In this document: one piece after another, positions 4,235 through 35,524 of the stretch
Position numbering within the stretch: the stretch's first letter is position 1
Layout: each line of letters begins with the position of its first letter
NCBI RefSeq assembly: GCF_913775525.1
Contig: NZ_CAJYLH010000034.1
From: an uncultured Chryseobacterium sp.
Lineage (GTDB): Bacteria > Bacteroidota > Bacteroidia > Flavobacteriales > Weeksellaceae
Reading direction: 5' to 3' (one strand)
DNA: 64,000 bases
Position numbers and translations under genes: made by a program
The notes under the pieces: generated by a model
Told to the model about the DNA's origin: nothing
What the model saw: only the letters and a program-made list of their open reading frames with translations
The model's database searches: none

Positions 4235-4283
4235 AATAACCTCCTCAGAGATTTTACACACATTCCCATATAGATCAGTCAGG

Positions 4284-11675: not shown

Positions 11676-11879
11676 ATGAAAAAAAAACTATTCACAGTCG
11701 CCTCATCAGCTTTTTATGCTGTGGCTCATTCACAGGCATGCATGAGTGATAACGGAACAGTAAGCAGTCTCGACATCACTTCCGGAAAAGCTAATCATAA
11801 CGCTGCCTATGGATTTCCCCTGCAAATCTGTCATACGGCAATACCGGTTATGGATACATTAACAGATGACGAATTTTAA
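11676..11879 (+). CDS. possible small secreted peptide or orphan signal-peptide fragment
   Basis: The 67-aa ORF starts with a signal-like MKKKLFTVASSAFYAVAHSQ. It overlaps the next ORF by 14 nt and may be a gene remnant. Confidence 0.25.
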   Translation: MKKKLFTVASSAFYAVAHSQACMSDNGTVSSLDITSGKANHNAAYGFPLQICHTAIPVMDTLTDDEF

Positions 11880-11892
11880 ACACTTTGATTGT

Positions 11893-12321: not shown

Positions 12322-12387
12322 TTTCAACCTTACATTTTTTTGCCCCCTTAACCGTTAACCCCATATTTACCCGTTATCTACTATCTA

Positions 12388-12759
12388 ATGGATGCACTAT
12401 ACCCTTCTCCTGACTACAGGAAAATTTACCGTGATATGATCACCATCAAATATCCGGATAAAGAACCGGTTTGTCAGTCAATTTTAAATAAGAAAAAATT
12501 TACAACACTGGATATTATCCGGCTGAATAACCTCATTACCGGAACCGCAACCAAAACATCCCTGGCTACCAATCAGAAACTGAGAGCTTATGACCGGGCT
12601 ACCATCATGCAAATCCTGGAATACCAGAAAAAGAACCGGCTCAACAATACACAGCTGGCACAGCATTTCAAACTCAGCAGGAATTCTGTAGCGAAATGGA
12701 AGAAAAAATATTGCAGCGAAAACTCCGGAGAGGATTCAGCATCAGCGCATGGGGTTTAA
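12388..12759 (+). CDS. small helix-turn-helix protein
   Basis: The segment NNTQLAQHFKLSRNSVAKWKKKY is a second HTH of the same style. Confidence 0.5.
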   Translation: MDALYPSPDYRKIYRDMITIKYPDKEPVCQSILNKKKFTTLDIIRLNNLITGTATKTSLATNQKLRAYDRATIMQILEYQKKNRLNNTQLAQHFKLSRNSVAKWKKKYCSENSGEDSASAHGV

Positions 12760-12906
12760 ACAATGTCCCTTATTAGGACTATTTTTTAATAATATTTTAT
12801 TTAATTTATAATATATTGTTAAAAATAGCCCAATTTTTGCTGTTACTGTGACTACTTTTGGAAACTCAAGTACACACCTATTAATTATAGACTATTTTTA
12901 CCCTTT

Positions 12907-14376
12907 ATGATCTTAATTGTTGATGATAATCAAAACAATATATATTCCCTCAAAAGGCTATTAGAATCCCGTGATTTTCAGGTGGATACAGCCAATTCAG
13001 GTGAAGAAGCGTTGGGAAAAGCACTCAAGAATGATTATGCACTGATTATTTTGGATGTTCAGATGCCGGATATGGATGGTTTCGAAGTGGCAGAAACTTT
13101 TGCCGGCTACAGTAAAACCAAGGAGATCCCCATTATATTTTTGTCCGCAGTCAATACTGAAAAAAGATTTATCACGCGCGGATATGCTTCCGGAGGTATT
13201 GATTACGTAACGAAACCTATTGATCCGGAAATCCTGCTTTTAAAAGTAAAGACATATTATAACCTTCAGGAGCAGAATCTTGCCATGAAGAAAACCCAGC
13301 AAAGCCTGGAGCTGGAAGTAAAAGGAAGAAGGGAATCGCAGGTAAACATGAAATCCAGGATAGATTATTTTCATCTTATGCTGGAAGCTCTTCCTCAGAT
13401 TGCATTTACTTTAAATGAAGATGGAAAGGTGGATTTCGTCAATGCCCGCTGGTACGAGTATTCCGCTTCAGACAAGGATTTCCCGGAAACCCACCCCGAT
13501 GACCTTAATATACAGGAAGAATTCGATCTTTGCCGGAAAAGAGGAAAACCTCTGGATCTTGAAGTGCGGCTCAGGAACAGGGAATCCGGCGACTACCGAT
13601 ACCACCTCCTCCGGATGTCTCCGGTATATGAAGGTGATGCCATAAAGAACTGGGTAGGAACCTTTACCGATATCGAAGACCAGAAGAAGGTGGAGAAAGA
13701 GAAAGACGAATTCCTGAGTATTGCCAGCCATGAACTGAAAACACCACTAACCAGTATAAAGGCATACATCCAGCTTTTGGAACGTAAGCTGAAACTGGAC
13801 GACTCCTGCTCGGAAGCCGGATTTGTCACGAAAGCCCTCACGCAGATCGAAAAACTGAATACCCTGATCAATGACCTTCTGGATGTTTCCAAAATAGAAA
13901 ACGGCAAACTGAAGATCAATAAAAAGCCGGCCAATCTGGAAACGGTTATCCACAATTCCATCGAAACCATCCTGCAGACGCATGAAGAAAATAACATCAG
14001 GATAGAACGACACGGTACCAGGCTGGATATGATCATGCCTTTTGATGAAATACGTATTGAACAGGTCCTGATCAACTTCCTGTCCAATGCCATCAAATAC
14101 TCCCCAAGAAACCAGCAGATCATCGTAACGACTTTTGTGGATGATGAGGGGGTAAAGGTCAGCGTTACAGATTTCGGGATCGGGATCCCGGAATTCAAAC
14201 AGGAGGCGGTTTTCAGTAAATTCTATCGTGTGGAAGAATCTTCACTGCAATTCCAGGGTATGGGCATCGGCCTGTACATCTGTTCGGAAATCATTAAACA
14301 GCATCATGGAACCATCGGACTGTCAAGCAAAGTCAACGAAGGTTCCACATTTTATTTTACCCTACCTTTACATTAA
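12907..14376 (+). CDS. hybrid two-component protein: REC - PAS - HisKA - HATPase_c
   Basis: REC motifs are ILIVDDN, IILDVQMPDMDG and YVTKP. The H-box is ASHELKTPLTSI. N, G1, F and G2 boxes are present (NAIKYS, DFGIGI, FSKFYR, GMGIGL). Confidence 0.9.
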   Translation: MILIVDDNQNNIYSLKRLLESRDFQVDTANSGEEALGKALKNDYALIILDVQMPDMDGFEVAETFAGYSKTKEIPIIFLSAVNTEKRFITRGYASGGIDYVTKPIDPEILLLKVKTYYNLQEQNLAMKKTQQSLELEVKGRRESQVNMKSRIDYFHLMLEALPQIAFTLNEDGKVDFVNARWYEYSASDKDFPETHPDDLNIQEEFDLCRKRGKPLDLEVRLRNRESGDYRYHLLRMSPVYEGDAIKNWVGTFTDIEDQKKVEKEKDEFLSIASHELKTPLTSIKAYIQLLERKLKLDDSCSEAGFVTKALTQIEKLNTLINDLLDVSKIENGKLKINKKPANLETVIHNSIETILQTHEENNIRIERHGTRLDMIMPFDEIRIEQVLINFLSNAIKYSPRNQQIIVTTFVDDEGVKVSVTDFGIGIPEFKQEAVFSKFYRVEESSLQFQGMGIGLYICSEIIKQHHGTIGLSSKVNEGSTFYFTLPLH

Positions 14377-21935: not shown

Positions 21936-22289
21936 AGTGTATTATTATGGTTTAAAACGTCAAAGTTAGGAAATAACCCTTGAGGAAGTTAAAAATATAC
22001 TCAATACTCTGCACAATACAGAACATTTATCTTTACAGTTGCTGGAATAATTAAAAAACTACCCCAAACGGTCAAAACACCGGCTTAGAATCAGCAGTAA
22101 TTTCGAGAATATGAACAGGAATAATGCGAACAAAATTTGTATTTAAAAGGTTATGGTAAAAAACAGCCAAGGATGAATATCTGTTGCCAGGCATCCAGAG
22201 ATGAGAATATGAAAACCGGAATCCTGTGCGCCCTATCGCACGGAGATCCGTTAGTGCTTGTATAGCCGGATCATCCTCAACTGTTTTTT

Positions 22290-22775
22290 CTATTTGACAT
22301 TGACATTATAATGAGGATAGGAACCGGCATCCTTGAAAATAAACGGCAATTCAAATTTTAACCGGTCATCTTTAAACACTTTAATACCTACGGTCATTTC
22401 ACCGGAATCTGTATTGTTCAGATGCATTTCCCCATTTACCGAAAGTATTTTCACATTCGCGCTGGTTGTAAAGCTTTTCTGCATGGGGAGGTTTTCCTGC
22501 GCTTCAAATACATATTCTGTATCCGAAACCTTTTTAGTTGACAATACATCAATGCCTGAGACCGTGGGAACAGTATTCTTTTTTACGATGGCAGACACCG
22601 TTAATTTTTCTGTCCATTTCTGGTACTCTCCGGAATACTTCAGCTCTACCCTGTAAGTACCTGATTCATTTTCTGAAGGTTCGTCTTCCCTCCCGATACA
22701 GTTGACAATGGTACATGAAACCGTTATCAATACTATAATCAAAAAGTAAAAAGCAATCCTGCGCTTATTTCTCAT
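22290..22775 (-). CDS. hypothetical lipoprotein
   Basis: 161 aa with a signal peptide and lipobox (LITVSC). No other motif. Confidence 0.5.
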   Translation of the reverse strand: MRNKRRIAFYFLIIVLITVSCTIVNCIGREDEPSENESGTYRVELKYSGEYQKWTEKLTVSAIVKKNTVPTVSGIDVLSTKKVSDTEYVFEAQENLPMQKSFTTSANVKILSVNGEMHLNNTDSGEMTVGIKVFKDDRLKFELPFIFKDAGSYPHYNVNVK

Positions 22776-23098
22776 ACTGTAGATTTACAGACGGCTAAAT
22801 TACTAATTTAATTCAAACAATAATGAATTTTATTTAAATTTCCATCATGAAGGCATGGTGGTATATCCTGATGATATGGATATTGTGGCAACTACCTGTT
22901 TATGGCTAAGAAATATACATCTGAGAGGAATACATGGCAAAACGTACTCTTTTAATGACGACAATAAAAGGATGCAGATTAAACTATAATTTCTATTTTT
23001 ACCATACAACTAAATTACGCAGTCTTAATAGCATTCGGTCTTCAAAAAAAGACTGAACTGTTTGTAAGTCTGTTTAACAATCTATCTCATAAACAACC

Positions 23099-23803
23099 AT
23101 GAACAACAATCCGGGCTTTATCTCTTTTTTAAAAGGTCATCCTATACCTGCCGGTCAGTCAACACCGATATCGAAGATCAAACTAACCATCCTGATGCTG
23201 ATCGCCATGCTGGTGGTCAATACCCTGGTGGCCGGACTGCAAATGATGCTGCTTCGCTGGGGAATTACACAACCAATCCGCTCATCCGGAGGTATTCCTG
23301 AATACATGAAAGACATGCCCCGCTACAGAATTGTCCTTGAAATTGTACTGCTTGCTCCTTTACTGGAAGAAACTGCCTTCAGAGGTATCCTGCAAAACAG
23401 TGAGCGATGGTTCAGGATTGCTCTGGTTTCCCTCGCTTATCTGATCATCTGCCGTATTTTCAGCCTGAACTTTTATGAGCTCTCCTGTCCAACGACCGGT
23501 ATCCTGTTCGCAGCAAGCTTTTTATTGTTCATCCGGAAGAAATATACCACCAAAATAATCGATGTAAAAGACAGGCCCCCCTTCCGGCTTATCCTGATCT
23601 GGCTCAGTGCCGTCGCTTTCGGGTTTTGGCATTATTATAATTTCGACTTTAGCCAGGCAGGCATCATAACGGTTGCGGTCAGCCTCATGCCTTTTGCAAT
23701 CAATGGCCTGCTCTTATCTTATGTAGCCGTTAAAAGCGGACTTTCCTGGAGCATCCTGCTGCATATGGCGAATAATGCATGGCCGATGGTGTTGTGGTTT
23801 TGA
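23099..23803 (+). CDS. CPBP-family intramembrane glutamic endopeptidase (CAAX protease-like)
   Basis: Multi-TM protein with the family motifs LLEETAFRG, FGFWH and LLHMANN. Confidence 0.8.
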   Translation: MNNNPGFISFLKGHPIPAGQSTPISKIKLTILMLIAMLVVNTLVAGLQMMLLRWGITQPIRSSGGIPEYMKDMPRYRIVLEIVLLAPLLEETAFRGILQNSERWFRIALVSLAYLIICRIFSLNFYELSCPTTGILFAASFLLFIRKKYTTKIIDVKDRPPFRLILIWLSAVAFGFWHYYNFDFSQAGIITVAVSLMPFAINGLLLSYVAVKSGLSWSILLHMANNAWPMVLWF

Positions 23804-23878
23804 GAGTGAGGATAGCAGCCCTGTTTTGTAAGGTATTATCCATATAATACAATATATTGACAACTGCAAAACAGCAAA

Positions 23879-23917
23879 AAGCCTAAGCAATCTGATGATT
23901 CGCTTAGGCTTTTATTT
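23879..23917. terminator. bidirectional-looking terminator hairpin at the left island junction
   Basis: Stem GCCTAAGC / GCTTAGGC (23881-88 / 23902-09), flanked by AAAAA on the left and TTTTATTT on the right. On the minus strand it directly follows the 13-bp tRNA-end repeat. Confidence 0.55.
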
Positions 23918-23930
23918 GTGGTCCCACTTG
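23918..23930 (-). repeat. 13-bp direct repeat of the tRNA(CAU) 3-prime end (distal att-like site)
   Basis: GTGGTCCCACTTG at 23918-23930 is identical to 33330-33342, which is the acceptor/T-arm 3-prime end of the tRNA. The repeat coincides with the abrupt change in base composition. Confidence 0.65.
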
Positions 23931-24054
23931 TAATGTCCTCCGTGTATTTTTGTGGCATTAGATGGAGTTATATTTACTTTATATCAGCTATTTATAAAAA
24001 TATTGGAGTTGTATGGAGTACTGTAGATGGGTTTAAGCGTGTTTAATAAGTTAG

Positions 24055-25893
24055 TTATATTTTTACTCCATAATAATCTTCTAAAAATGTATCAATAATA
24101 TTTTGATTAGATTCATTTATTAAAAAGTCAATATCATCGTTAGTAAAGTCTGGAATACCAAAATTTTTAATATATGTTCCGTTTAAAGAATAGTAATCAG
24201 ATGAATAAGGTTTGCTCGTTCTTTCTATATAATACCAAAATAAACGTGATTCTAAGATCTTCTTTACCAATTGCATTTCCTCCTCGGAATGACCTATAAT
24301 TGCCTGACCATTGTAAAAAAGCAAATTAGCATCATTACTAATCAAATAGCTTGGTATTTTGTCTGAAAACTTCGGAAAAAACAATTTATTAGTAATCTTT
24401 TCTAAAGACTGGGTTCTTCCAAAAGCAAACCATTTTTCATATTTACCATTGCCCTTATCTCGTTTAGCCAACTCTTTTTTTTTCTTTTTTAAATATTTAT
24501 AAGCATAAGGATATTTTTCTTTCAATACTTCTTCATTAAGGGCTTTCGGCTTAATTTCTTCATCGTATGGGAATAATACTTTTTCTTTTACTTCATCAAA
24601 ATTAATATCTCTGCTCAACTTATTTGAGTTTAATATATCCCTACAGATTCCTTTTTCAATAGGATGTAAACTGCCATTTTGAAGATAATAAAATTCCTCA
24701 TCTTCCATTATAGGCTTAAAAATATAAAGATCATTTCTCAATGTAGCAATGCCATGCCTTGTTTTATACCTTTCACCAAATGATTTTCCTATTTCTTCAA
24801 TCTTAGATATTATTTCATTATCATTCAGATTCCAGCCTTTTTTAGCGTCAAGATTACCATAATCGATTCTCCTATATTGATTCCCATTAATTGGTAATTC
24901 CTTATCAATCGATTTATAGTATTCAATATAATTTTGTTCTACTTTCTCAAGGAAGCAGATACACGTGTAAGTACTTTTTGATTTAAATATCTGATGTGTC
25001 CCAAAGTCAATAATTCTTATTGTAGCTTTATTTTCTTCAAAATAACTTCTTAAAGCCCTGCCATTTAAACTTTTGAAAAAAGTATTCATGGTAATAAAAC
25101 CAAGAATGCCATTTTCTGTAAGATTTTCATAACCAATTTGAAAGAAAGGAATATATAAATCAGGATTACCTGATGTGCTAACAACCCAATTCTTAATATT
25201 TTCTTTAGTTTCCTCATCTAGATTTCTTGCCGAAACATAAGGAGGATTTCCCACAATTATCTCAAATCCTTGAAAATTCTGATATATATTATTCCAATCG
25301 AAAACTAATGAATCTCCCGTAAATATATTAAAATGAAACTCTTCCACATCTTCACCTTCTGACAATGCTAATAAACTCAACAGCAACTTACTTCTATTAA
25401 CAGAATATTCTTGAATATCTAATCCAAATATCTGATTTTGAAAAATATGTTGGTAATTATTCTCTGTCCTTTGTTTTAATTGTTTCGCTGCTGTATACAA
25501 AAAACCAGAACAACCACAAGCAATATCTGCTATTTTAACATCTGCAATTCTATTACCTTCTCTTCTAAATGATTGATTAATGATATATTCCCTGATTTCA
25601 GAAGGAGTATATACCGCGCCATTTATAATTCTGTCAGAAGGAGAAATAACAAATTCAAATAATTCGATTAATTTTTCAATATCAAAAATATTTATTTCTT
25701 TAGTAATAATTTCAATGAATTTAATTAAGCTATCCCATTCCTGTATTTCATCTTCTTGGATATAGTATTCCAACAAAAAACGATTCTCTAAGACTGTTAA
25801 TTGGTTAATTTCTAAAAAAGCAGATACAATAAGTCTATCAACCTCTAAAGGTTGAGTTGAATAGGTTTTTAAGTATCTGAATATTTTTCTCAT
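24055..25893 (-). CDS. N6-adenine DNA methyltransferase, gamma class (Eco57I/TaqI-like, with C-terminal target-recognition region); no nuclease domain evident
   Basis: Motif X is GAVYTPSEI, motif I is DIACGCSGFLY and motif IV is GNPPYVSA (NPPY at 25237-25248). A TaqI_C-like region follows (GRALRSYF...IRIIDFG). The start is either 25926 or, more likely, 25893, where ATGA overlaps the upstream stop. Confidence 0.85.
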   Translation of the reverse strand: MRKIFRYLKTYSTQPLEVDRLIVSAFLEINQLTVLENRFLLEYYIQEDEIQEWDSLIKFIEIITKEINIFDIEKLIELFEFVISPSDRIINGAVYTPSEIREYIINQSFRREGNRIADVKIADIACGCSGFLYTAAKQLKQRTENNYQHIFQNQIFGLDIQEYSVNRSKLLLSLLALSEGEDVEEFHFNIFTGDSLVFDWNNIYQNFQGFEIIVGNPPYVSARNLDEETKENIKNWVVSTSGNPDLYIPFFQIGYENLTENGILGFITMNTFFKSLNGRALRSYFEENKATIRIIDFGTHQIFKSKSTYTCICFLEKVEQNYIEYYKSIDKELPINGNQYRRIDYGNLDAKKGWNLNDNEIISKIEEIGKSFGERYKTRHGIATLRNDLYIFKPIMEDEEFYYLQNGSLHPIEKGICRDILNSNKLSRDINFDEVKEKVLFPYDEEIKPKALNEEVLKEKYPYAYKYLKKKKKELAKRDKGNGKYEKWFAFGRTQSLEKITNKLFFPKFSDKIPSYLISNDANLLFYNGQAIIGHSEEEMQLVKKILESRLFWYYIERTSKPYSSDYYSLNGTYIKNFGIPDFTNDDIDFLINESNQNIIDTFLEDYYGVKI

Positions 25894-26603
25894 ATTAAAT
25901 ACGGACAATTTAATTTTGGATCCCAAATTCTATTATTCATTGGAGTTAACCAATAGCTTTCTAAGGAATTAAAATATGGCCTCCATACGCGCACTTGATA
26001 TTCTTTTGTTAAATTAATAAACTGTCTGTCCTTTAAAAGTTTTTCATATAATTTTGGCGCAAAATTAGAAATAATTACACTTACACCTAAAATCAATTCC
26101 ATGGGTAAATGCATCATTCGAGGAATATCAAGCTGTAAACTTTCTCCATGATCAAATTCGTCTTTAGGCTTTGCTTTACCATTTTGCAAATATTGCATGT
26201 GATATAATGGATGAATCTCATTTGTACTTCCTCCATTATGTCTGTCTATGTGAAAACTTAAATAATGAGTATGACCAGTAAGTTTATTTGTCCCTTTTAA
26301 TAAAGTTCTAAAATTTAATACATCAAATGGGTCATTTAATTTTTCCCATTCTGCATTTTGAGAAACAACATCAATATCAATCAGAACTTCTAAATTTGAA
26401 AATCCTTTTGGCCTAATATGTTTAAGCGTTGAATTTTCAATAAGAAATTTTAATTCTTTTATTGAGTAACCCCATAAATGGTCAGGTAACATTTCTTTGT
26501 GATCAATACTCTTATAGCTAATTGAAAGTCGAGAAAGTATATTAAGAAAATCAACAATATCCTTTTTCATTTTTCCTTTAAATGCTTTGTTACTTATAGC
26601 CAT
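25890..26603 (-). CDS. hypothetical protein (237 aa), candidate effector or accessory component of the island operon
   Basis: Clean ORF coupled at both ends (TAATG overlap upstream, ATGA overlap downstream). It has a His-rich central segment, GHTHYLSFHIDRHNGGSTNEIHPLYHMQY. I cannot recognise any domain. Confidence 0.6.
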   Translation of the reverse strand: MAISNKAFKGKMKKDIVDFLNILSRLSISYKSIDHKEMLPDHLWGYSIKELKFLIENSTLKHIRPKGFSNLEVLIDIDVVSQNAEWEKLNDPFDVLNFRTLLKGTNKLTGHTHYLSFHIDRHNGGSTNEIHPLYHMQYLQNGKAKPKDEFDHGESLQLDIPRMMHLPMELILGVSVIISNFAPKLYEKLLKDRQFINLTKEYQVRVWRPYFNSLESYWLTPMNNRIWDPKLNCPYLI

Positions 26604-27715
26604 TATATACCTAATAATTCTTTTGTATATTCTATATTTTCCACTTCACTTGAATGAGGTTTTAAACCCCTTTCGACTCCCACTCTTTCTAAAATAGCAA
26701 GCAGTGATATATACTTGTATTCTTCCCACGGTTTGATATCTACAGTAGTAAAAATTCTGAATGCTTCTAATGGATCAATTGGCACCTTGTAAGCCTCACA
26801 AATTGACCAAAATTCTGTACTGTTACAGAATTTTAAAGGTTGAGCTACTACTAAGCCTGCTAAACTATATTTATTCATTAATATTTCAATACGTTTTTCT
26901 GCATTAATAAAAGCAAGATTTTCACCTGAAATCTCCTCAAACCAAGTCACTAACCCATCTGCCCACCACCTTTGCCAACCATCAGAAAAAATGCCTTTAT
27001 ACTTTATATTAGATAGTATCTCATTTTTTACAGTATACCATAACTTCACAGGCGTATGAGCTAAGTCTATTCCAAGTCTAGCTGCTAAAATTTTTTCATT
27101 AATCAGAGGGTTCGTTTGATGAAAAAAATGTTTCACAACAAAATGGGTATAATCATAAGAAACAGAAAAATTATCAATTTTTTCTACAATTCTTTCGTCC
27201 AGATTCTTTATATTAATTCCGAAAATATCTTCTTTTGTCCGTGCTTGAAGCTGTAACCAATTATAGCCTTTTGCTAATGAATCCAATTTTTGAGACATCT
27301 TTTCCCAATCTGGTTTTTCATTAGATTTATTTATCTTATAATCAAATAAGTCATGACTAGTTTTATCGGTATCGTAAGTTTGTTTAATATTACTTTCCGT
27401 AGAGCAAAGTACTATTGGAAATGATAATATTTCTTCTCTCGCAGCTACAGATCTAAGTTCTGAAGTCAAAGCAGTTGCATTAAACTCTGTTCTATCACTT
27501 CCACTTCCATCTAATCTTAAGTCTACTATTAGTCCATCAAAAGAATGTTCTTTGATTCTTCTAATTAATTCAATCTTAAGATTGCTAAATTCTCTAAAGT
27601 CAGATAAAGGGAACCTTTCAACCTCAATTATTTTTAAATCATTAAATCCATTTAAAGTGGAAATTTCGGGAGTCCCATTCTCATCATCAATATATAAATA
27701 TTTAACTTTTTTCAT
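26603..27715 (-). CDS. receiver (REC)-like domain protein with an unknown C-terminal domain of about 230 aa
   Basis: REC landmarks occur in the canonical order: D10-D11 (YIDDE), D65 (LIVDLRLDG; codon at 27521-27523), S105/T106 (IVLCST) and K127 (DYK). The C-terminal part (W-rich: GWQRWWADGLVTWFEE) is unassignable. The start overlaps the kinase stop by 14 nt. Confidence 0.6.
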   Translation of the reverse strand: MKKVKYLYIDDENGTPEISTLNGFNDLKIIEVERFPLSDFREFSNLKIELIRRIKEHSFDGLIVDLRLDGSGSDRTEFNATALTSELRSVAAREEILSFPIVLCSTESNIKQTYDTDKTSHDLFDYKINKSNEKPDWEKMSQKLDSLAKGYNWLQLQARTKEDIFGINIKNLDERIVEKIDNFSVSYDYTHFVVKHFFHQTNPLINEKILAARLGIDLAHTPVKLWYTVKNEILSNIKYKGIFSDGWQRWWADGLVTWFEEISGENLAFINAEKRIEILMNKYSLAGLVVAQPLKFCNSTEFWSICEAYKVPIDPLEAFRIFTTVDIKPWEEYKYISLLAILERVGVERGLKPHSSEVENIEYTKELLGI

Positions 27716-30017
27716 TATTAGTTTTTGGTATTTCTATTCTTATTGTTGTATTATAACCATCTGCAGGAGTTGAAACATATATTTCTCCATTATAGAATTC
27801 GATTATATCCTTTACTATTTTTAATCCTAAGCCAGTTCCTGTAAGAGCAGCCGCATCATCTGAAGTATGGTTAGAAACTGTTGATGACGTATAAAATGCA
27901 TTGAAAATATTCTCTTCATTTTCTTTTTTAATACCATCACCATTATCTGAAAATTCTAAGAAAACGACATTCTCATCCTTGCCACATTTTATAAAAATCT
28001 TACCATTAGATTTGGCTCTTTTAATGGCTTTTTTTGAATTGGTATATAAATTAAACAATATAGACGCCCATTCCGAAGGATGCATTGGAATAGTAAATAA
28101 ATCATATCCTTCATATTGCGTTGGTAGCATATCTATAGCTGCTCTTTTTAAATCATTGGAAATAACAACTTCAAAATTTCTAACCACATCTCTCAATTCT
28201 ATTGACTCTAGTTCTCTGTGTACATTTCTAGAAATAGTTTTATCAAAATATGATGTGTATGTGCTAAATGATTTTACATTCATTTCTAATAATTCTGTTC
28301 TTTCGTAAACATCCTTATAGTCTTTAACTGCACTTTTAAGAAAACGAATATCTGCATCAAAGCCTGGTAAGAATCGCTGAACTTCGTGTACAAATTCTCC
28401 AATTACTAGACCTAATCCTGCTAATATTCGAAGCATATTAACCTCATCAATAAGTTCTTGATTTTTCGTTTTTTCTTCTTCTCTTGCTTGTTTTATTTTT
28501 TCAAAGATGTCCTCTGCTTTTTTCTTTTTTTCATCTTGATCTGAACTCTGACTGCTATTACCTGTGTTCACAGAAGTTGTTATCAATTCTTTTATTTCAT
28601 CAATCGCACTATCAACAATTTCTGAAGGATTTTCTTTTTTGAAACCTTTTTGGGATGCTGTAGCTTTTCTTCCTCTAAGTTCTGAAACTTTCATAACGGC
28701 ACTTGTTAATGAGCGATATACAAAACTTACTAATTCATTTAAATATTCATTTTCAATTAGCCCTTCTCTACTTGATGTTTCTTCAAAATTTCCGGATCTG
28801 TCCTCAAGTTCTACAAATCCAAAAAAACTACGATTCATATGTGGACCAAGAACAATACTTCTATTATTTGATTGATCTAATCCTAACCAATCGTCTCCTT
28901 GTTCACCATATGGCAAAACACGGAAACCATTTCTATATAATTTGATCCCTCCCTTTTCATAACTTAAGTCTCTTATAAAAGTAAAATTACCTGGCGAAAA
29001 TAACGACCCTTCATAAATAAAATAGTAAGCCTTGAAATGCACTCCTCTAATTAGATTAAAAGAAGTAGTTGTGTCCTCTTTATTTTTCTCATTATTACCT
29101 ATCAAAAATACTTCTTGAGGAAAATTTAATTTATCACTTTTTAATGCCCAGCATCCTTGACCATCGTCTAATACATAGCCTTCAATTTCCGCTAAAGCAT
29201 GTTGGAAAATTGCTTTTTCTTCATCAACAATCGCAATTAAATCTCCATTGTCACTACGATAATAATTACTCTTAAATCCCCCATCAACAGAACTTTCTAT
29301 TTGTTCCTCTTTCTTTTTTGAAAGTGGAAATGGTTGTAATAATTCAGATGTATAACGATATACTCTTTTGATCATAGCATCAGACCATCCCTCTCTCAGT
29401 CCTTCAATTATCAATACTGTGCCATTATCTTTAATTTTTGGAACAAACTCAATTGAATTAGAAACTGTCAATAAATCTTTATCAGTTTCAAAATCATCCC
29501 AATTAACAACCACTTTTAATGCTTCTTGAGACTGCATAGTTTGAGTAATAATTGATAGTTTATTTCCCAAACGTTGAGTGGCAAATCTACCAATGCCCTT
29601 TTTTCCTGCTTTTTGACGCCTATACTTTTCAGAAACCGGATTGTGAATCTTATCTGAAGAAGACAATCTCATAAAACCATTCACCAGCTGTTCTCTGTTC
29701 ATTCCATGTCCATTATCTTCAATTGTTAAAACCCCTCCCTTATTCCATGCGTTTTCAAAAATTAAATCAACGACTGTTGCATCTGCATCATAAGCATTTT
29801 TTATAAGTTCTGAAACTGCTGTCTCTTGTTTAGCTACAAGTTCTTTTCCCAATCTATTAATAATACCTGCATCAACGGAAAACCTTACAGATGATTCATC
29901 TAAAGCTGCTATTTCTTTAGATAAAGTAATAATGAGATTATTATCAGAGTTTTCTTTTTTAATTTCTTCTGATAATCTGTTTTTTAATTCTAATAATTTA
30001 TCTAATTTATTATCCAT
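27702..30017 (-). CDS. dual-GHKL protein: N-terminal MORC/MutL-type HATPase_c_3-like ATPase + central region + DHp-like His helix + C-terminal histidine-kinase catalytic (HATPase_c) domain
   Basis: N-terminal Bergerat motifs are ELIKNAYDAD, EDNGHGM and GKKGIGRFA. A candidate phospho-acceptor helix is LGLVIGEFVHEVQRFL (His553 in ORF numbering; codon at 28386-28388). The C-terminal N box is FNLYTNSKKA, G1 is SDNGDGI, F is FNAFYT and G2 is GTGLGLKIV. The start is likely MDNKLDKL at 30017; the ORF opens at 30044. Confidence 0.75.
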   Translation of the reverse strand: MDNKLDKLLELKNRLSEEIKKENSDNNLIITLSKEIAALDESSVRFSVDAGIINRLGKELVAKQETAVSELIKNAYDADATVVDLIFENAWNKGGVLTIEDNGHGMNREQLVNGFMRLSSSDKIHNPVSEKYRRQKAGKKGIGRFATQRLGNKLSIITQTMQSQEALKVVVNWDDFETDKDLLTVSNSIEFVPKIKDNGTVLIIEGLREGWSDAMIKRVYRYTSELLQPFPLSKKKEEQIESSVDGGFKSNYYRSDNGDLIAIVDEEKAIFQHALAEIEGYVLDDGQGCWALKSDKLNFPQEVFLIGNNEKNKEDTTTSFNLIRGVHFKAYYFIYEGSLFSPGNFTFIRDLSYEKGGIKLYRNGFRVLPYGEQGDDWLGLDQSNNRSIVLGPHMNRSFFGFVELEDRSGNFEETSSREGLIENEYLNELVSFVYRSLTSAVMKVSELRGRKATASQKGFKKENPSEIVDSAIDEIKELITTSVNTGNSSQSSDQDEKKKKAEDIFEKIKQAREEEKTKNQELIDEVNMLRILAGLGLVIGEFVHEVQRFLPGFDADIRFLKSAVKDYKDVYERTELLEMNVKSFSTYTSYFDKTISRNVHRELESIELRDVVRNFEVVISNDLKRAAIDMLPTQYEGYDLFTIPMHPSEWASILFNLYTNSKKAIKRAKSNGKIFIKCGKDENVVFLEFSDNGDGIKKENEENIFNAFYTSSTVSNHTSDDAAALTGTGLGLKIVKDIIEFYNGEIYVSTPADGYNTTIRIEIPKTNNEKS

Positions 30018-30083
30018 GATATTTGCTGAGCTGTGAAATAGCAATTATTTTTTAAGAAAAAATGTTCTTAAAATTATAATATT

Positions 30084-30716
30084 TTATACGACCTCCACTT
30101 TCAACCCTAAATTCAATTTTTTAGAAATCTCTTCCAATTGTGTCCTTTTCTGATTGGTAGCAGAATGAGTTACAATCAACCACCCTCCTGATATTTCGTG
30201 TTGATTATAAAAATCATCCTTTACTTTTGAAACCAAAGGTAAGCCAACCCACCTCATTTCCAAACTTGCAACTTTCTCAACACCAGCTTTTTCAATAACT
30301 GCTAAAAAAGTTTCGTAGGCATATTTCCTTTCTATCTTTGTTCCATCTGGATATATAACGGAAAGACCTGTTTTCCGAGATTTAGGAGAGGAGAGAATTT
30401 TTCTATCTGTTTTTCTTCCTGAATGTTCCTTTATAGATAAAGGATATTGCTTTGTTTCAACTTCATCTGTGATAACTTTCTTACGCGTAAGACGTACGCT
30501 CAAATCTTCATTGGGAATATAATCAACTACTAATACAATAGGACGTTTTATTTTGGTAATTATTGGTTCTATATTATCAGCTAAACGAGGAATTATTTCA
30601 TTTTTAATTAAATCTTCTTCTAAAGTATTTACGGCTTCTAATGTTTCTTTATTTAATGGTAATCCTAATTCTTTCAAATTTTCGATAGAATTATATAGCT
30701 TATCTAAGTTTGTCAT
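30084..30716 (-). CDS. hypothetical protein (210 aa), first gene of the island operon
   Basis: Clean ORF 39-66 nt upstream of the kinase gene. It has a helical N-terminal half, a basic linker (SGRKTDRKILSSPKSRKTG) and a compact C-terminal alpha/beta-looking half. No nameable domain. Confidence 0.55.
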   Translation of the reverse strand: MTNLDKLYNSIENLKELGLPLNKETLEAVNTLEEDLIKNEIIPRLADNIEPIITKIKRPIVLVVDYIPNEDLSVRLTRKKVITDEVETKQYPLSIKEHSGRKTDRKILSSPKSRKTGLSVIYPDGTKIERKYAYETFLAVIEKAGVEKVASLEMRWVGLPLVSKVKDDFYNQHEISGGWLIVTHSATNQKRTQLEEISKKLNLGLKVEVV

Positions 30717-30750
30717 TTGGTCATCATTTATTAGTAGTAATTAAATCAAA

Positions 30751-30758
30751 CAAAACTA
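30751..30758 (-). promoter_or_regulatory. candidate -7 promoter element (TAGTTTTG) for the island operon
   Basis: The minus strand reads TAGTTTTG 35 nt upstream of the ATG at 30716 and matches TAnnTTTG. No clear -33 TTG partner was found. Confidence 0.3.
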
Positions 30759-31838
30759 CGAATTTTGAGGGACATAATATTTGAATAAATATAAAGCAGT
30801 ACAATGACATATAATTGTATTGGTAAGTTTAGCCAAAGAAGTCTTCTTTGAAAGAAGACTTCACTACAGTGGATATAAATTAAAAATTTTATACTCGAAT
30901 AATTCCAATTCTAAACGTTACACTATTATTGACAACTACAGTCAAATTTATATAAAAAAATATTTTTCTGCTTTGTTTCATTGGTATAGTTGTTTGAACC
31001 TTCAGTTATATTATAATTTGTTACATTAGTGAAACAAGAATTTGTTGAACTTTTTACATTATTATTATTCCAAAAATAAGTAAGTGTTAAAATCTTGATC
31101 AAAAATATCCTGAAACGTAAAGTACTTAAAAGTACTGTTAAACTTATTCTCAATAGTTAAATCATAAAAAATCATCGTCTCACATTCGAGGACATTGCTT
31201 CCGTTATATAATTTAAGTTTTGTTGAGTTTTCTCCAGTGCATTCCAATACTGTTTTGTCGTCAATTGTAGTGTTATTGGAACTGTAATCTACTATTCAAT
31301 GAGTTTGTAACCACTGTAATTATATGTTTCTTTCACTGTATAAGTTAAGCTACCATTGTATAAATCCCAATTTTTCTGTTCAATTATCTGACCACGAGGT
31401 AAGTTTAGGTTTAGAATAATATTCAACTCCATATTTACAGATAAAGTACTGTTCCAAAATAGTAAACCTTTTTATTTTCTCATCAAATACATCCAAATCG
31501 AGAAATTCTTCTAAAGTATTCTCCAAAAATGTAAATATTTTGGAAATGATTCTAATGGTAAATCAGTTAATTCAAGAGTAATAAGATTATTTCTTTTCAT
31601 ATAGGACTTTCGGAAGAACCAAGATAAAAATATTTTGTGGAATATAAAGGGATATCGAAGATTGACGAAAATGGAAATTTTCTCAATCTCTTTAGAAAAA
31701 GGCAATACAGATATAAAACAGGAAAATAACTTCTGTAATTTGAAATCACAAAGTCATTTTAATTTTTTTTAAATAGAACCATATTCTTGCAAAGTCAATC
31801 CAGCAAGGCTTTTCCGAGAAAGTTTAAGCGTATATTTC

Positions 31839-31861
31839 GGATCAGTTTCAAAAGTTGGGGA
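31839..31861 (+). repeat. IS left terminal inverted repeat
   Basis: It is the reverse complement of 33217-33239 at about 19 of 23 positions. Confidence 0.6.
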
Positions 31862-31889
31862 GAAAAATTAATACTTGTAATTTTACAAA

Positions 31890-33216
31890 ATGTCATCTGA
31901 GAAAGAACTATTAAAATTACTTTTACTGGAATACCTGGTTGAATACTTTGATATTACCGATTTTGAAGAAAAAGAAGGATTGCTTCATCTTTATTTTGAG
32001 GAAAAAAATACTGTTCCCAAAGAGTTTTTCTCTCTACATCTGCACTCCAAAGGTTTTCATGAAGAAATCACGGTTAATGACTTTCCACTTCGTGGAAAAC
32101 CTGTAAAACTTCACATCTAACGCAGAAGATGGACCGATACAAAATCTGGCAAGATCCTGCAGAGAGACTGGAATCTCATTGCCGCTGGAACCCGCATGAC
32201 AAATGACTTTGCGGAGTTCTTAAAAAAAATCAGACGATACTAAAGCCCTTCCCTTAGAAACCATCGGTGAGGTGTATGGTGTACCAGGAAAAACATTCCG
32301 CAGACAATACAAAAAATCATTAAGCGGTTTTAAAGACTGGCCTCAAAAACCCCACGCAGAAGATTGGATTCTTTATCCTGAAAACTGCTCCTGTTCTCTA
32401 TCTCTGAATGAAGTTGCTCTTTCCCAGGGAGAATTATACACCGTTCTTACTTCCAAAACAGCAAAAGGCAGGAAAGGCAGTATTGTTGCCATTATCAAAG
32501 GTACACAGAGTGAGACGGTCATTGAGCAGCTTCTGAAAATAGGCAGGAAGCTTCGCAAAAATGTAAAGGAAATTACCCTTGATATGGCCGGGTCTATGAA
32601 GCTCATTGCCAAACGCTGTTTTCCTGATGCTATTAAGGTCATAGACCGGTTCCATGTTCAGAAGCTCGCCACTGAAGCCCTTCAGGAATTAAGGATCAAC
32701 TATCGTTGGGAAGCTATAGAGCTGGAAAACAGACTGCTCGATGAAGCAAAGAAAAAAAAGGAGCCTATTGAGATAGAAACGTTTGAAAACGGGGATACCC
32801 GCAAACAGCTTCTGGCAAGAAGCCGGTATTTACTCTACAAAAGCAGAGAAAAGTGGATGCCTTCTCAAATTCAGAGGGCTGAAATTTTATTTACCGAATA
32901 TCCCGATTTAAAGAAGGCTTATGGGCTGTCGGATGGACTACGAAAGATTTATAATCAGAATATTCCCAAATCTATTGCGATGACAAAGTTAGCGCATTGG
33001 TTCAGGGATGTTGAAACATCAGGTTTTAAATCATTCTCAGTTTTAAGGAAAACAATAATGAATCATTACAGCGATATCTTAAATTTTTTCGACAGAAGAA
33101 GTACTAACGCCTCGGCAGAATCTTTTAATGCCAAAATCAAAAACTTCAGATTGCAGTTCCGTGGAGTGAAAGACCGAACTTTCTTCTTATTCAGACTGAC
33201 TAAACTTTTTGCATAG
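31890..33216 (+). pseudogene. ISL3-family transposase pseudogene (in-frame TAA at 32118-32120; frameshift in the A8 run 32222-32229)
   Basis: ORF 31890..32120 continues in frame after the TAA as RRRWTDTKSGKILQRDWNLIAAGTRMTNDFAEFLKK, the typical ISL3 N-terminal region. The reading frame then switches at the A8 tract into ORF 32272..33216. That ORF carries DMAGSM...VIDRFHVQK and the C-terminal NASAESFNAKIKNFR, which resemble the ISL3 DDE domain. Confidence 0.7.
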
Positions 33217-33239
33217 TCCCCAACTTTTGTTCATGATCC
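33217..33239 (-). repeat. IS right terminal inverted repeat
   Basis: It pairs with 31839-31861 and starts immediately after the transposase stop codon (33214-33216). Confidence 0.6.
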
Positions 33240-33257
33240 AACTTTTGTTCATGATCC
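33222..33257 (+). repeat. tandem 18-bp duplication of the IS right-end sequence
   Basis: AACTTTTGTTCATGATCC occurs twice back to back, at 33222-33239 and 33240-33257. Confidence 0.8.
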
Positions 33258-33284
33258 AGCATAATTTATTGGTGGTGTAGGCTG

Positions 33285-33314
33285 AAAACAAAAAAAGCCC
33301 CATAAATAGGGGCT
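33285..33314 (-). terminator. rho-independent terminator immediately downstream of the tRNA
   Basis: Stem AGCCCC / GGGGCT (33296-33301 / 33309-33314). An A-rich run at 33285-33295 on the plus strand gives a U-run after the hairpin on the minus strand. Confidence 0.55.
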
Positions 33315-33330
33315 TGTCGAGTTTTTGTAG

Positions 33331-33405
33331 TGGTCCCACTTGGGCTCGAACCAAGGACCACCTGATTATGAGTCAGGTGCTCTAACCAACTGAGCTATAG
33401 GACCT
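33331..33405 (-). tRNA. tRNA with CAU anticodon (elongator Met or lysidine-dependent Ile2); CCA not encoded
   Basis: The reverse complement GGTCCTATAGCTCAGTTGGTTAGAGCACCTGACTCATAATCAGGTGGTCCTTGGTTCGAGCCCAAGTGGGACCA folds as a cloverleaf. It has a 7-bp acceptor stem, a D arm GCTC/GAGC, an anticodon stem CCTGA/TCAGG with loop CTCATAA, and a T arm CTTGG/CCAAG with TTCGAGC. It is not an initiator, because it lacks the GGG/CCC anticodon stem. The C4:G69 and C5:G68 pairs hint at Ile2. Confidence 0.9.
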
Positions 33406-33465
33406 CAAAATTGGTTGAATTTTGTGACTGCAAAAATAGCAAAATTTCCGGCACTGCAAAATTTT

Positions 33466-33864
33466 TTACGGTTTTTCTTGACATAATTCTACCAGGACTC
33501 CATTGGTGCTTTTCGGGTGCAGGAAAGCAACCAGCTTATTATCAGCGCCTTCTTTAGGCTCTTCGGAAATAAATTCAAACCCTTCTTTTTTCAGGCGGTC
33601 TATCTCATCCAGAATATTATCGACACCAAAGGCAAGATGGTGGATGCCCTCCCCTTTTTTACTAATGAATTTGGAAATGGGACTGTCCTCTTTGCTGGCT
33701 TCAAGCAGTTCGATTTTGCTGTCGCCGCTCTGATAAAAAGAGGTGACTACTCCTTCGCGTTCAACACTTTCTTTTTTGTAGGAAGGTTTTCCCAGCAGGC
33801 GGGCAAAAAGGTCATCGGAAATCCCCAGGGAGGCTACAGCAATGCCGATATGTTCTAACTTCAT
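33466..33864 (-). CDS. mce: methylmalonyl-CoA epimerase (VOC/glyoxalase fold)
   Basis: 132 aa: MKLEHIGIAV...GEGIHHLAFGVDNI...AFLHPKSTNGVLVEL. Confidence 0.8.
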   Translation of the reverse strand: MKLEHIGIAVASLGISDDLFARLLGKPSYKKESVEREGVVTSFYQSGDSKIELLEASKEDSPISKFISKKGEGIHHLAFGVDNILDEIDRLKKEGFEFISEEPKEGADNKLVAFLHPKSTNGVLVELCQEKP

Positions 33865-33937
33865 AGGTTGATGGATCTAATTAAGCGTAAATTTATTGCT
33901 GAAGGCAGATTTCGCCCGGCAATTCAAACAAAAGTAC

Positions 33938-33945
33938 TAAATTTG
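33938..33945 (+). promoter_or_regulatory. -7 promoter element (TAAATTTG) upstream of rbfA
   Basis: It matches TAnnTTTG and ends 8 nt before the rbfA ATG. Confidence 0.4.
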
Positions 33946-33953
33946 CATCACTT

Positions 33954-34313
33954 ATGGAAAGTAACAGACAAAGAAAAGTAGCACAGATTATACAGGAAGA
34001 TTTCGCGGAGCTTTTCCGTAAACAGGCGTCAGAGAGCAAGCAAAGCATCCTGATCAGTGTTTCGGATGTAAAGATTTCTGCCGATCTGGGGATTGCCAAG
34101 ATTTACCTCAGCATTTTCCCGCAGGAGTTCCGCTCTGCCGTTATGAAGGAGATTGAGGCCAATAAAACCCAGTACCGCAACTTTATCGGTCAAAAAATGG
34201 CCAAGCAGGTACGTGTGATCCCGCAGCTGAACTTCTACCTGGATACCACGCTGGACGATGTGGAAAGGATTGAAAAGGAACTAAGAGGCGAAGGCGATAA
34301 TCCTACCCTGTAA
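33954..34313 (+). CDS. rbfA: ribosome-binding factor A
   Basis: 119 aa: MESNRQRKVAQIIQEDFAELF...VSDVKISADLGIAKIYLS...IPQLNFYLD. Confidence 0.9.
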   Translation: MESNRQRKVAQIIQEDFAELFRKQASESKQSILISVSDVKISADLGIAKIYLSIFPQEFRSAVMKEIEANKTQYRNFIGQKMAKQVRVIPQLNFYLDTTLDDVERIEKELRGEGDNPTL

Positions 34314-34318
34314 AAAGC

Positions 34319-35524
34319 GTGAAAAACATTGCCTTCTATATTGCATCCCGCTACCTTTTATCCAAAAAAGGAAGTACGGCTGTTACGTTTATTACGTGGC
34401 TGGCTATCGGGGCTATGACAGTAGCTGTAACGGCAATGTTTGTTATTATCTCTGTATTCTCCGGACTGGAAGACCTTAACCAGGACCTCATCTCCAATCT
34501 CCACGCCGATCTTACCGTGGAAAGCGTTTCAGGAAAAACACTGAAAGACCTTAATAAAACGGTTGATATCCTGAAAGCCAATAAAGAAATCAGCAGCTTT
34601 TCAAAGGTTATTGAAGAAAAAGTCTACATCAACTTCAACGGAAAAGGGGATATCGCTTACCTGCGCGGTGTAGATTCTGCCTATACTAAGGTAAACCCCA
34701 TCAACAAAGAAGTATTCTACGGAACATATCCAAGTTTTGAGTATTCCAATGAAGTCCTGATGGAAAATTCACTGGACAACCGCCTGTCGGTGCCGGTAGC
34801 TTCCGATAAAGGCTTTGCTACGGTCTTCATGCCCAAAGCAGGAACAGGGATCATTAACAAAGAAGAAGATATTTACCGTAAAAAAGATATTCTGGTAACC
34901 GGTGTATTTCCTGGAAAAGACCAGCTGGACAATTACATCATCGCTCCGATCGAGCTGACGGAAGAACTTCTGGACCTGCCGAAGAACTCAGCCTACCGGA
35001 TCGTGATCAAACTGAAAAACCCGGACAATACAGATGCGGTAAAACAGCAACTGCTCTCTTCTTTAGACAAAAAGGTAAAAATCCGTACCAAGGAAGAGGA
35101 GAATGCAGCATTCTGGAAAATGATCAATACTGAAAAACTGTTTATTTACCTGATCTTTGCCCTGGTCATCTTTATCACGACCTTTAACCTTGCCGGTGCC
35201 ATCATCATCCTTCAGCTGGATAAAAAACAGCAGGCACGGTCACTGGTTTCGCTGGGCTTCCCGCTTAACGGACTCAGAAAAATCTATTTTTATACCGGAA
35301 TCCTGATTGTCATCTGCGGCGTTGCCTCCGGACTGATCTTCGGGACTGCACTCTGCTATTTCCAGGAATATACTGAGTTTTTCAGGGCCAATGAAACACT
35401 GCCATTCCCGGTAAAAATTGTAGCCCGGAATTATATTACCGTTGCTCTTACAGCAGCCCTGTTTGGGATCGCCATTTCCTGGTTCTTCTCCAGGATACGC
35501 AAAGACTATATTACTAAAAATTAA
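34319..35524 (+). CDS. FtsX-like ABC transporter permease (LolC/E-like)
   Basis: 401 aa with a GTG start. N-terminus IASRYLLSKKGS, then TM1, a large periplasmic loop and three C-terminal TM segments. Confidence 0.8.
   Translation: MKNIAFYIASRYLLSKKGSTAVTFITWLAIGAMTVAVTAMFVIISVFSGLEDLNQDLISNLHADLTVESVSGKTLKDLNKTVDILKANKEISSFSKVIEEKVYINFNGKGDIAYLRGVDSAYTKVNPINKEVFYGTYPSFEYSNEVLMENSLDNRLSVPVASDKGFATVFMPKAGTGIINKEEDIYRKKDILVTGVFPGKDQLDNYIIAPIELTEELLDLPKNSAYRIVIKLKNPDNTDAVKQQLLSSLDKKVKIRTKEEENAAFWKMINTEKLFIYLIFALVIFITTFNLAGAIIILQLDKKQQARSLVSLGFPLNGLRKIYFYTGILIVICGVASGLIFGTALCYFQEYTEFFRANETLPFPVKIVARNYITVALTAALFGIAISWFFSRIRKDYITKN

Follow-up and report, generated by a model that had tools for sequence, protein, structure and literature searches.

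A mobile Bacteroidota gene cassette predicted to gate restriction–modification-like defence by two-component signalling

Here we analyse a 64,000-nucleotide (nt) stretch of contig NZ_CAJYLH010000034.1 (assembly GCF_913775525.1) from an uncultured Chryseobacterium sp., hereafter the window. Its minus strand carries a cassette of four coupled genes that encode a soluble histidine kinase, a response-regulator-like (receiver) protein, a 237-amino-acid (aa) orphan protein (U237) and an N6-adenine DNA methyltransferase. We consider it probable, at about 60%, that this cassette is a horizontally mobile, two-component-gated, restriction–modification (R–M)-like defence system of the same class as Ambrosia, a system validated as anti-phage in Pseudomonas aeruginosa (bioRxiv 10.1101/2025.09.30.679545). 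The catalytic residues of the kinase and receiver are intact, the genes of the cassette are tightly coupled, the cassette is mobile and lies in a defence context, and its kinase is homologous to a validated defence kinase.

A conserved four-gene unit

A first-pass annotation, made from the sequence of the window, had proposed a five-gene operon at this position, in which a 210-aa gene (U210) precedes the kinase gene. The five co-oriented minus-strand open reading frames (ORFs) that it described are all present in the ORF list, and the gene caller applied to the public contig agrees, with products of 771, 370, 237 and 612 aa. We regard the ORFs as real genes because they run for 210–780 codons in such AT-rich DNA and each has many homologues. 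The junctions also proved to be as described. The kinase and receiver genes overlap by 14 nt, the receiver and 237-aa genes by 1 nt (TAATG), and the 237-aa and methyltransferase genes by 4 nt (ATGA, with the methyltransferase start ATG at 25893), the last of which also occurs at related loci. The 210-aa and kinase genes are separated by a gap of 39–66 nt with a weak hairpin (TTAAGAA/TTCTTAA). As an operon unit, the proposal stands for the four genes that are conserved together but not for the 210-aa gene, which falls outside. The conserved unit thus consists of the kinase, receiver, 237-aa and methyltransferase genes.

This gene order recurs at every related locus that is long enough to judge, about 25 in total. 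A kinase-side search recovered seven genome loci, all with the same four genes in the same order (Niabella, Mariniflexile, Sphingobacterium, Capnocytophaga, Chryseobacterium, Flavobacterium and a Bacteroidetes metagenome-assembled genome (MAG)); the scan of genome contigs used a single kinase sequence, and these seven were its only true loci. A search from the 237-aa side added 17 metagenome loci, with the same order wherever the locus was long enough. In the loci examined, the 237-aa gene always stands between the receiver and methyltransferase genes. The co-occurrence of kinase, receiver, 237-aa and methyltransferase genes that had been predicted from the window is therefore strongly supported across the ~25 loci.

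The relatives reach low identities: at a Hymenobacter plasmid locus with a pAgo gene as neighbour, the kinase, receiver, 237-aa protein and methyltransferase are 49, 36, 29 and 40% identical, respectively, to those of the window. The phyletic spread of the cassette is patchy and incongruent, and near-identical copies occur across Bacteroidota families. Its neighbours vary from locus to locus and are of defence or mobile type, including type I R–M genes (hsdRMS) with a relaxase gene, Mrr, DUF3800 and prokaryotic Argonaute (pAgo) genes. On the plasmid of Hymenobacter sp. PAMC 26628 (L010, 297–5934), the cassette adjoins a Piwi-domain (pAgo) gene and the gene for a 1118-aa DNA methyltransferase.

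Kinase and receiver retain the residues of a phosphorelay

The kinase consists of an N-terminal paraMORC/MutL-type GHKL ATPase, a middle domain, a coiled coil, a DHp domain (H553-E554) and a CA domain. Pfam places HATPase_c_3 at residues 74–199 (2e-24) and HATPase_c at residues 660–775 (5e-26), and the N-terminus matches the NCBIfam model of the BbrUII/HgiDII restriction-enzyme N-terminus (9e-20). Matches in the PDB are to MutL for the N-terminus and to the DHp and CA cores of ZraS, WalK, VanS and EnvZ for the C-terminal part, with the ZraS match covering residues 520–765. GHKL motifs I–III, the H-box (F-V-H553-E) and the N, G1, F and G2 boxes are conserved in the kinase superfamily out to 25% identity. 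The kinase motifs noted at first pass, namely both GHKL domains and H553-E in the H-box, are present, and the protein joins a MORC/MutL-type module to a bona fide DHp/CA core. A further copy of the kinase (76% identity) and receiver (49%) occurs on a 35.6-kb contig attributed to a Candidatus Saccharimonadaceae MAG (P0078, P0221), which reflects either transfer across phyla or a binning error.

The 370-aa receiver protein gave no family match in Pfam, NCBIfam, PADLOC or PHROGs, and its fold comes from the AlphaFold model (predicted local distance difference test (pLDDT) score, 89.6), which has a receiver fold at residues 1–130. Foldseek aligns the model to the receiver domains of ArcA, BfmR, RstA and MtrA with probability 1.0 and a TM score of ~0.7. 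The divergent REC domain that had been proposed for this protein, missed by Pfam, is in this way confirmed, and so are the proposed phospho-acceptor D65 and the other residues of the set (D10/D11, S105/T106 and K130). Among 45 representatives at 27–43% identity, D10, D11 and D65 are invariant and S105 and K130 nearly so. At 50% identity, the family falls into 694 clusters; its 150 best-scoring members are nearly all uniform in length and architecture.

The remainder of the receiver protein, residues 137–370, is a mostly helical C-terminal domain with a near-invariant 'LAARLG' segment. Residues G215, Y239, G241, W251, C306 and W330 of this domain are invariant, and W247, W250, R275, P312 and D314 nearly so. 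It has no match in Pfam or the PDB and none to a helix–turn–helix (HTH) family or structure; Foldseek searches of the whole model against two libraries returned matches to the receiver domain only. A PD-(D/E)xK nuclease motif in this domain (P-x-D314 ... D/E326-x-K328) was considered and rejected, as K328, E301, E307 and E317 are unconserved in a Hymenobacter member and 45 diverse representatives.

Probable membership of the Ambrosia class

The annotation had presented the locus as a candidate undescribed system. This does not hold, as the class was predicted in 2021 (PMC8011034) and its ability to block phages was shown in 2025 with Ambrosia (bioRxiv 10.1101/2025.09.30.679545). The cassette maps onto a named system at the level of the class but not gene by gene. 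It is a Bacteroidota variant of Ambrosia-class two-component-gated R–M-like defence, rather than a new kind of system.

Ambrosia consists of AbrR (an XRE protein), AbrA (an N6 methyltransferase), AbrB (a kinase/HATPase), AbrC (a receiver) and AbrD (an HNH protein); its defence requires all domains, including N40 of AbrB (the Asn of the N-terminal GHKL domain) and D60 of AbrC, and its reported distribution is limited to Gammaproteobacteria (bioRxiv 10.1101/2025.09.30.679545). Using the sequences in the supplement of that preprint (Table S1), with residues 1–399 of AbrB as the BLASTP query, we found that AbrB and the window kinase share 28% identity over 409 aa (122 bits). The window methyltransferase matches AbrA marginally (E = 0.002 over 99 aa). 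The window receiver has no BLASTP match to AbrC, which scores 5.8 bits with the receiver family profile, and Pfam finds no HNH family in the five window proteins. No Ambrosia was found on Pseudomonas plasmids in PLSDB.

The two systems follow one logic, with an adenine methyltransferase, a soluble kinase with HATPase_c_3 and HATPase_c domains, a receiver, a fourth gene in the effector slot and, in the canonical cassette, an XRE gene. The residues mutated in Ambrosia, the motif-I Asn of the AbrB GHKL domain and the Asp of AbrC, have conserved counterparts in the window. They differ in the fourth gene, which encodes an orphan 237-aa protein in the window and an HNH nuclease (AbrD) in Ambrosia; in the receiver, which has 370 aa and its own 230-aa C-terminal domain in the window, whereas AbrC has 209 aa; and in the methyltransferase, a 612-aa Eco57I/CamA-like enzyme as opposed to the 448-aa AbrA of another subfamily. 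Gene order and host range (Bacteroidota here) also differ, and the window copy lacks the XRE gene.

Sister cassettes in Bacteroidota lie closer to Ambrosia and, unlike the window, have recognizable HNH or MBL-fold effectors and short receivers. A Bacteroides finegoldii plasmid (L014) encodes a kinase (30% identity to AbrB, 161 bits), a 209-aa receiver (5e-5 to AbrC), an HNH protein (2e-13 to AbrD) and an Eco57I-type methyltransferase, and on a Hymenobacter volaticus plasmid (L011) the kinase gene is accompanied by genes for an AbrA-like methyltransferase (35% identity), a 227-aa protein and an MBL-fold hydrolase. Both kinases are 27–28% identical to that of the window over 90–95% of the protein. 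Kinases paired with a 340–357-aa receiver protein also occur on Campylobacter conjugative plasmids and an Enterobacter plasmid; the Campylobacter carriers are common conjugative plasmids of 50–75 kb, and the enterobacterial pair had no match in E. coli genomes. On more than 40 Campylobacter jejuni/coli plasmids (L012), a sister pair of a 736-aa kinase and a 340-aa receiver has dcm and an AAA ATPase gene as neighbours. AbrB-like kinase/receiver pairs thus make up a superfamily in which methyltransferases and effectors are interchangeable, and the presumed output of the window branch is the receiver C-terminal domain together with U237.

The 2021 prediction (Bellieny-Rabelo et al., PMC8011034) described in silico a pair of a kinase-like protein with HATPase_c_3, DHp and HATPase_c domains and a receiver-like protein, enriched beside R–M genes and linked in 91.6% of 644 regions. 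Its hosts include Chryseobacterium and Flavobacterium; descent from paraMORCs was argued and regulation of R–M proposed, on purely computational grounds, and the neighbours were mainly C5-cytosine methyltransferases, Vsr and HNH_2 (PMC8011034). The kinase architecture of these HEF_HK/Response_reg_2 elements is identical to that in the window, including the His-Glu DHp and the lack of membrane segments, and the adjacent receiver-like protein likewise has REC residues, no other known domain and R–M neighbours. The window differs in having an N6-adenine methyltransferase and the orphan U237 as neighbours. We obtained no match to PF19191 (HEF_HK) at E values up to 10 for the window kinase, its isolated DHp included, or for its Proteobacterial and Campylobacter relatives, and none to PF19192 (Response_reg_2) for 41 + 45 receiver family members; a positive control was absent from these searches, and the PF19191 model may be narrow or missing from the Pfam copy used.

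The paraMORC and MORC GHKL ATPases are R–M subunits (Iyer, Abhiman and Aravind 2008, PMC2292703), and the GHKL-Shedu protein VcSduA couples GHKL to a nuclease output (PMC12137116). They share with the window an N-terminal HATPase_c_3-type GHKL domain in R–M-like loci; however, they act directly, as fusions to or partners of nucleases or helicases, whereas the window GHKL domain is fused to a kinase core and signals through a receiver. Detocs also defends by a His–Asp phosphorelay, but the cassette lacks its buffer receiver and PNP effector, has a methyltransferase and uses another sensor module; none of the five proteins matches Detocs in PADLOC-DB 2.0, and the window cassette has one receiver gene and no PNP domain. 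For BREX/Pgl, the island that carries the cassette contains no PglZ, BrxC, BrxL or PglW, and PglX models match the methyltransferase only in its catalytic-motif region, with 41–53 bits against cut-offs of 400–500. The view that the locus is neither Detocs nor BREX/Pgl was therefore correct, and PADLOC 2.0 gave no kinase or receiver match to these systems or to MADS.

U237 and the methyltransferase

In 23 U237 sequences down to 29% identity, H62, D91, H118, D120, E129, H131, H135, D159 and R162 are invariant and Q137 is nearly so, a pattern that suggests the active site of an enzyme and not a scaffold. U237 occupies the slot that is filled by an HNH or MBL-fold gene in the sister cassettes. Because of this slot and the invariant His, Asp and Glu residues, we interpret U237 as a putative DNA-directed effector enzyme. 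It has no match in Pfam, NCBIfam, PADLOC, PHROGs or PDB sequences, and none in Foldseek (best E = 0.17); the model has a pLDDT of 72.9, and the conserved core is its least confident part.

Two candidate folds were set aside. An HNH-like beta-beta-alpha motif ('HIDRHNG...HPLYH') is not supported, as H122 is not invariant and one member has a 30-aa insertion between the halves; the U237 family profile has no match to AbrD or to the L014 HNH protein. A 2-oxoglutarate-oxygenase-like HxD...H triad has too short a spacing.

The methyltransferase is a gamma-class enzyme with NPPY at residue 227 and a C-terminal target-recognition region. As the first reading had it, this is an NPPY DNA adenine methyltransferase, with Pfam matches to Eco57I (4e-30) and N6_Mtase (2.5e-20). 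PADLOC calls it MTase_II (PDLC03335, 1e-102) over its full length, and its nearest solved structures are CamA (7LNI, 7e-19), M.BseCI and PglX. No known nuclease family or fold was found in any cassette protein by Pfam and PADLOC or, for U237, by Foldseek and PDB sequences; U237 could be an unrecognized restriction enzyme. It had been supposed that the methyltransferase marks self DNA. This should not be assumed, since methylation by AbrA gave phage no protection and Ambrosia did not act like classical R–M (bioRxiv 10.1101/2025.09.30.679545). The mark may serve either to protect self DNA or to single out DNA for attack.

Receiver and U237 vary as a unit

Across the related loci, identity matrices of the kinase and methyltransferase correlate with r = 0.98 and those of the receiver and the 237-aa protein with r = 0.94, and the cross pairs give 0.59–0.76. 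Three loci (L002–L004) make the pattern plain. Their kinases and methyltransferases are 73–86% identical to those of the window, whereas their receivers are 46–49% and their 237-aa proteins 34–35% identical, values below those of loci with far more distant kinases and methyltransferases. The kinase DHp (91–94% identity) and the methyltransferase recognition region are untouched by this divergence. We conclude that the receiver and 237-aa genes behave as an exchangeable unit.

An island at tRNA-Met

The cassette lies on an insertion of ~9.4 kb with a duplicated target (Table 1). Alignment of the window with the empty-site sister strain L036 gives blocks at 21955–23930 (97.4% identity) and 33322–34863 (98.5%). 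Because these blocks stop at 23930 and resume at 33322, we place the insertion at 23931–33329. Five sister-strain contigs (L036 and L038–L041), recognized by a 100%-identical neighbouring glyoxalase protein, have the empty site, with the glyoxalase gene, tRNA-Met and an Rce1-like gene directly adjacent. Another strain (L037) has a different, 291-aa gene inserted at the same tRNA-Met 3′ end, so that this end is an insertion hotspot. The repeat GTGGTCCCACTTG occurs exactly twice in the window (23918–23930 and 33330–33342), against 0.02 chance matches expected.

The island region has a G+C content of 29.5%, compared with 43–44% in the flanks and genome, as the first-pass annotation had recognized. 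A mobile, defence-type context is likewise upheld by the 9.4-kb insertion at tRNA-Met, which has no counterpart in the sister strains. 'tRNA-flanked', the term used at first, applies to one end, where tRNA-Met is the single tRNA that ARAGORN detects in the window; the other end is a 13-bp repeat copy only. Nor are the five genes the sole cargo, given ~1.1 kb of AT-rich DNA without ORFs of 80 aa or more, possibly decayed sequence, and an insertion sequence (IS)-like element. The window ORF list contains no integrase-sized ORF for the island. The host of the island falls within the Chryseobacterium camelliae group.

Table 1. Features of the island and its boundaries in the window
Feature	Coordinates	Strand	Remarks
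Left island boundary: 13-bp direct repeat GTGGTCCCACTTG	23918..23930	.	Copy of the tRNA-Met 3′ end; two copies in the window
N6-adenine DNA methyltransferase	24055..25893	-	612 aa from ATG; ORF open to TTG 25926 (623 aa)
237-aa orphan protein (U237)	25890..26603	-	Between receiver and methyltransferase genes; candidate effector enzyme
Response-regulator-like protein	26603..27715	-	370 aa; receiver domain 1–130 and C-terminal domain 137–370
Soluble histidine kinase	27702..30017	-	771 aa from ATG; 780 aa from TTG 30044
210-aa protein (U210)	30084..30716	-	Accessory gene of this island copy; outside the conserved cassette
AT-rich spacer within island	30717..31838	.	~1.1 kb; no ORF ≥80 aa (ORF list, composition)
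IS-like element	31839..33257	+	Transposase split in two ORFs; 23-nt imperfect inverted repeats
tRNA-Met (CAT)	33330..33404	-	ARAGORN; 3′ end (33330–33342) is the right-hand repeat copy, integration site

The IS-like element sits between the cassette and tRNA-Met. Its inverted repeats lie at 31839–31861 and 33217–33239 and its ORFs at 31890–32120 (76 aa) and 32272–33216 (314 aa); its G+C content is 39%, against 29.5% elsewhere in the island, and it has no plasmid match in PLSDB. A 96%-identical copy of 23916–30862 is present in Chryseobacterium sp. E1 (L006) in an unrelated context, the similarity starting at 23916 and stopping at 30862. In that copy (L006 10001–12323), the kinase gene is in ~10 frame-shifted pieces and the methyltransferase gene in two, which is probably an error of long-read assembly and not decay. 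Elsewhere in the window, a second stretch of lower G+C content (10000–13000, 36–38%) lies upstream of a cluster of CheR, CheB, receiver and hybrid-kinase genes (~14–20 kb).

The gene upstream of the kinase

In ten related loci (L001, L002, L003, L007, L016–L019, L021 and L023), a gene for a 69–70-aa Cro/C1-type XRE protein (HTH_26, 1.4e-11) stands directly upstream of the kinase gene, with its 3′ end 22–27 nt inside it. No XRE homologue was found anywhere in the window, 30018–30800 included, and the DNA similarity of the window to its relatives ends a few codons into the kinase. The window copy has lost the XRE gene, with the unrelated U210 in its place. Contrary to the first-pass annotation, U210 is thus not a component of the system: among related loci, it is limited to the window and the 96%-identical copy, and the XRE gene is found elsewhere. 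U210 has no family match (Pfam, NCBIfam, PADLOC and PHROGs) and no phage match.

A 39%-identical homologue of U210 occurs in a different defence island on a Parabacteroides distasonis plasmid (L033, 7001–7657), between a TIR-domain gene and a gene for a 902-aa AAA-domain protein, with SNF2 and N6-methylase genes adjoining. U210-like proteins may in themselves be accessories of defence islands. Among the cassette variants, the most distant (L029, L030 and L031, ~2410–4419) have a gene for a 655–669-aa N6_N4_Mtase protein that overlaps the kinase start in the usual place of XRE, which makes them a two-methyltransferase version of the system.

Proposed mechanism and alternatives

We propose that the N-terminal paraMORC-type GHKL domain and the middle domain of the kinase would detect infection or foreign DNA inside the cell. 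The kinase would then autophosphorylate at H553 and pass the phosphate to D65 of the receiver, a transfer suggested by residues and folds that are both in place. Through its C-terminal domain, the phosphorylated receiver may turn on the output jointly with the co-evolving U237, which as an effector enzyme would act on DNA, and the N6-adenine methyltransferase would provide the epigenetic mark that the system reads.

A more specific version, which we put forward only tentatively, is that the receiver C-terminal domain and U237 make up a phospho-activated effector complex, that U237 represents a new metal-dependent, DNA-acting fold, and that the two are swapped as a unit on conserved kinase/methyltransferase backbones against phage counter-defence. 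A MORC-like kinase that senses DNA would in that case control restriction after translation, through His–Asp phosphotransfer. As to the mode of output, we lean slightly towards direct post-translational activation of a receiver/U237 complex over purely transcriptional control, because the identities of the receiver and U237 rise and fall together, their genes share a 1-nt overlap and the receiver C-terminal domain is large and without a match to an HTH family.

Several points weigh against an Ambrosia-class defence system. Its support is computational, and the defence activity of the cassette is a prediction. The likeness to Ambrosia is solid for the kinase only: AbrC reaches 5.8 bits, AbrA an E value of 0.002, and AbrD has nothing. 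For U237, no nuclease fold or family could be detected, and the model of its conserved core is of low confidence. The 'AARLG' helix of the receiver C-terminal domain could be a DNA-binding motif, which would fit a transcriptional model, and co-variation of adjacent genes can stem from one recombination event without physical interaction. In the absence of XRE, this copy may be regulated differently or be impaired.

Transcriptional control, in its full form, would mean that the phospho-activated 370-aa protein is a transcription factor that binds DNA through its C-terminal domain and, on infection, induces a silent R–M pair of U237, as the restriction enzyme, and the methyltransferase, with XRE as a C-protein-like repressor. 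It is the model that the authors of Ambrosia themselves propose; infection induced their reporters at the positions of abrA and abrD, and AbrC is reported to have a winged HTH (bioRxiv 10.1101/2025.09.30.679545). The overlap of the XRE gene with the kinase start in most relatives, the mostly helical receiver C-terminal domain with its 'LAARLG' segment, and a 4-nt overlap between the 237-aa and methyltransferase genes of the kind typical of R–M pairs would all suit it. However, that domain matches no HTH family or structure; it is also large for an output that binds DNA (230 aa) and has an invariant core rich in Trp and Cys. Because all the genes share one tightly coupled operon, levels of the kinase and receiver would themselves rise on induction; the receiver co-varies with U237 and not with the kinase; and the window copy lacks XRE. 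We regard this model as possible but somewhat doubtful.

Less plausible, and in our view unlikely, is an ordinary type II R–M or addiction module, in which the methyltransferase is paired with U237 and/or a nuclease in the receiver C-terminal domain, and the kinase and receiver only tune or stabilize the restriction–modification balance during establishment in a new host, with no sensing of phage. The full-length type II methyltransferase call by PADLOC, the likeness of the kinase N-terminus to the BbrUII/HgiDII restriction enzymes, the precedent of paraMORC ATPases as R–M subunits (PMC2292703) and the high mobility of the element are compatible with such a module. Yet the strict conservation of both GHKL domains, the H-box and the receiver Asp among widely divergent relatives speaks for a signalling step that is essential; methylation in Ambrosia did not protect phage, nor did that system act like classical R–M; and no known restriction-enzyme fold is detectable.

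A non-defence epigenetic circuit, with an orphan CamA-like methyltransferase under the control of a cytoplasmic two-component system that changes host gene expression in this way, is very improbable. In its favour, CamA, the nearest solved methyltransferase relative, is an orphan enzyme, and no nuclease is recognizable. Against it, the distribution is patchy and incongruent with near-identical copies across Bacteroidota families, the locations are plasmids and tRNA islands with R–M, pAgo and Mrr neighbours, the kinase has a homologue validated in defence, and the middle two genes diverge fast and are swapped as a module.

Implications

Two-component signalling in R–M-like immunity has been validated once so far, in Ambrosia of Pseudomonas. 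Bacteroidota widely carry this kinase backbone with another output, a receiver family of ~700 clusters and a His/Asp-rich orphan. The HNH, MBL-fold and 237-aa variants of the effector slot on homologous kinases amount to a natural experiment on the output of a phosphorelay, and the two co-evolving halves, kinase with methyltransferase and receiver with 237-aa protein, predict interaction partners. As PADLOC 2.0 misses the cassette and Ambrosia has been reported from Gammaproteobacteria only, inventories of defence systems in Bacteroidota may overlook it.

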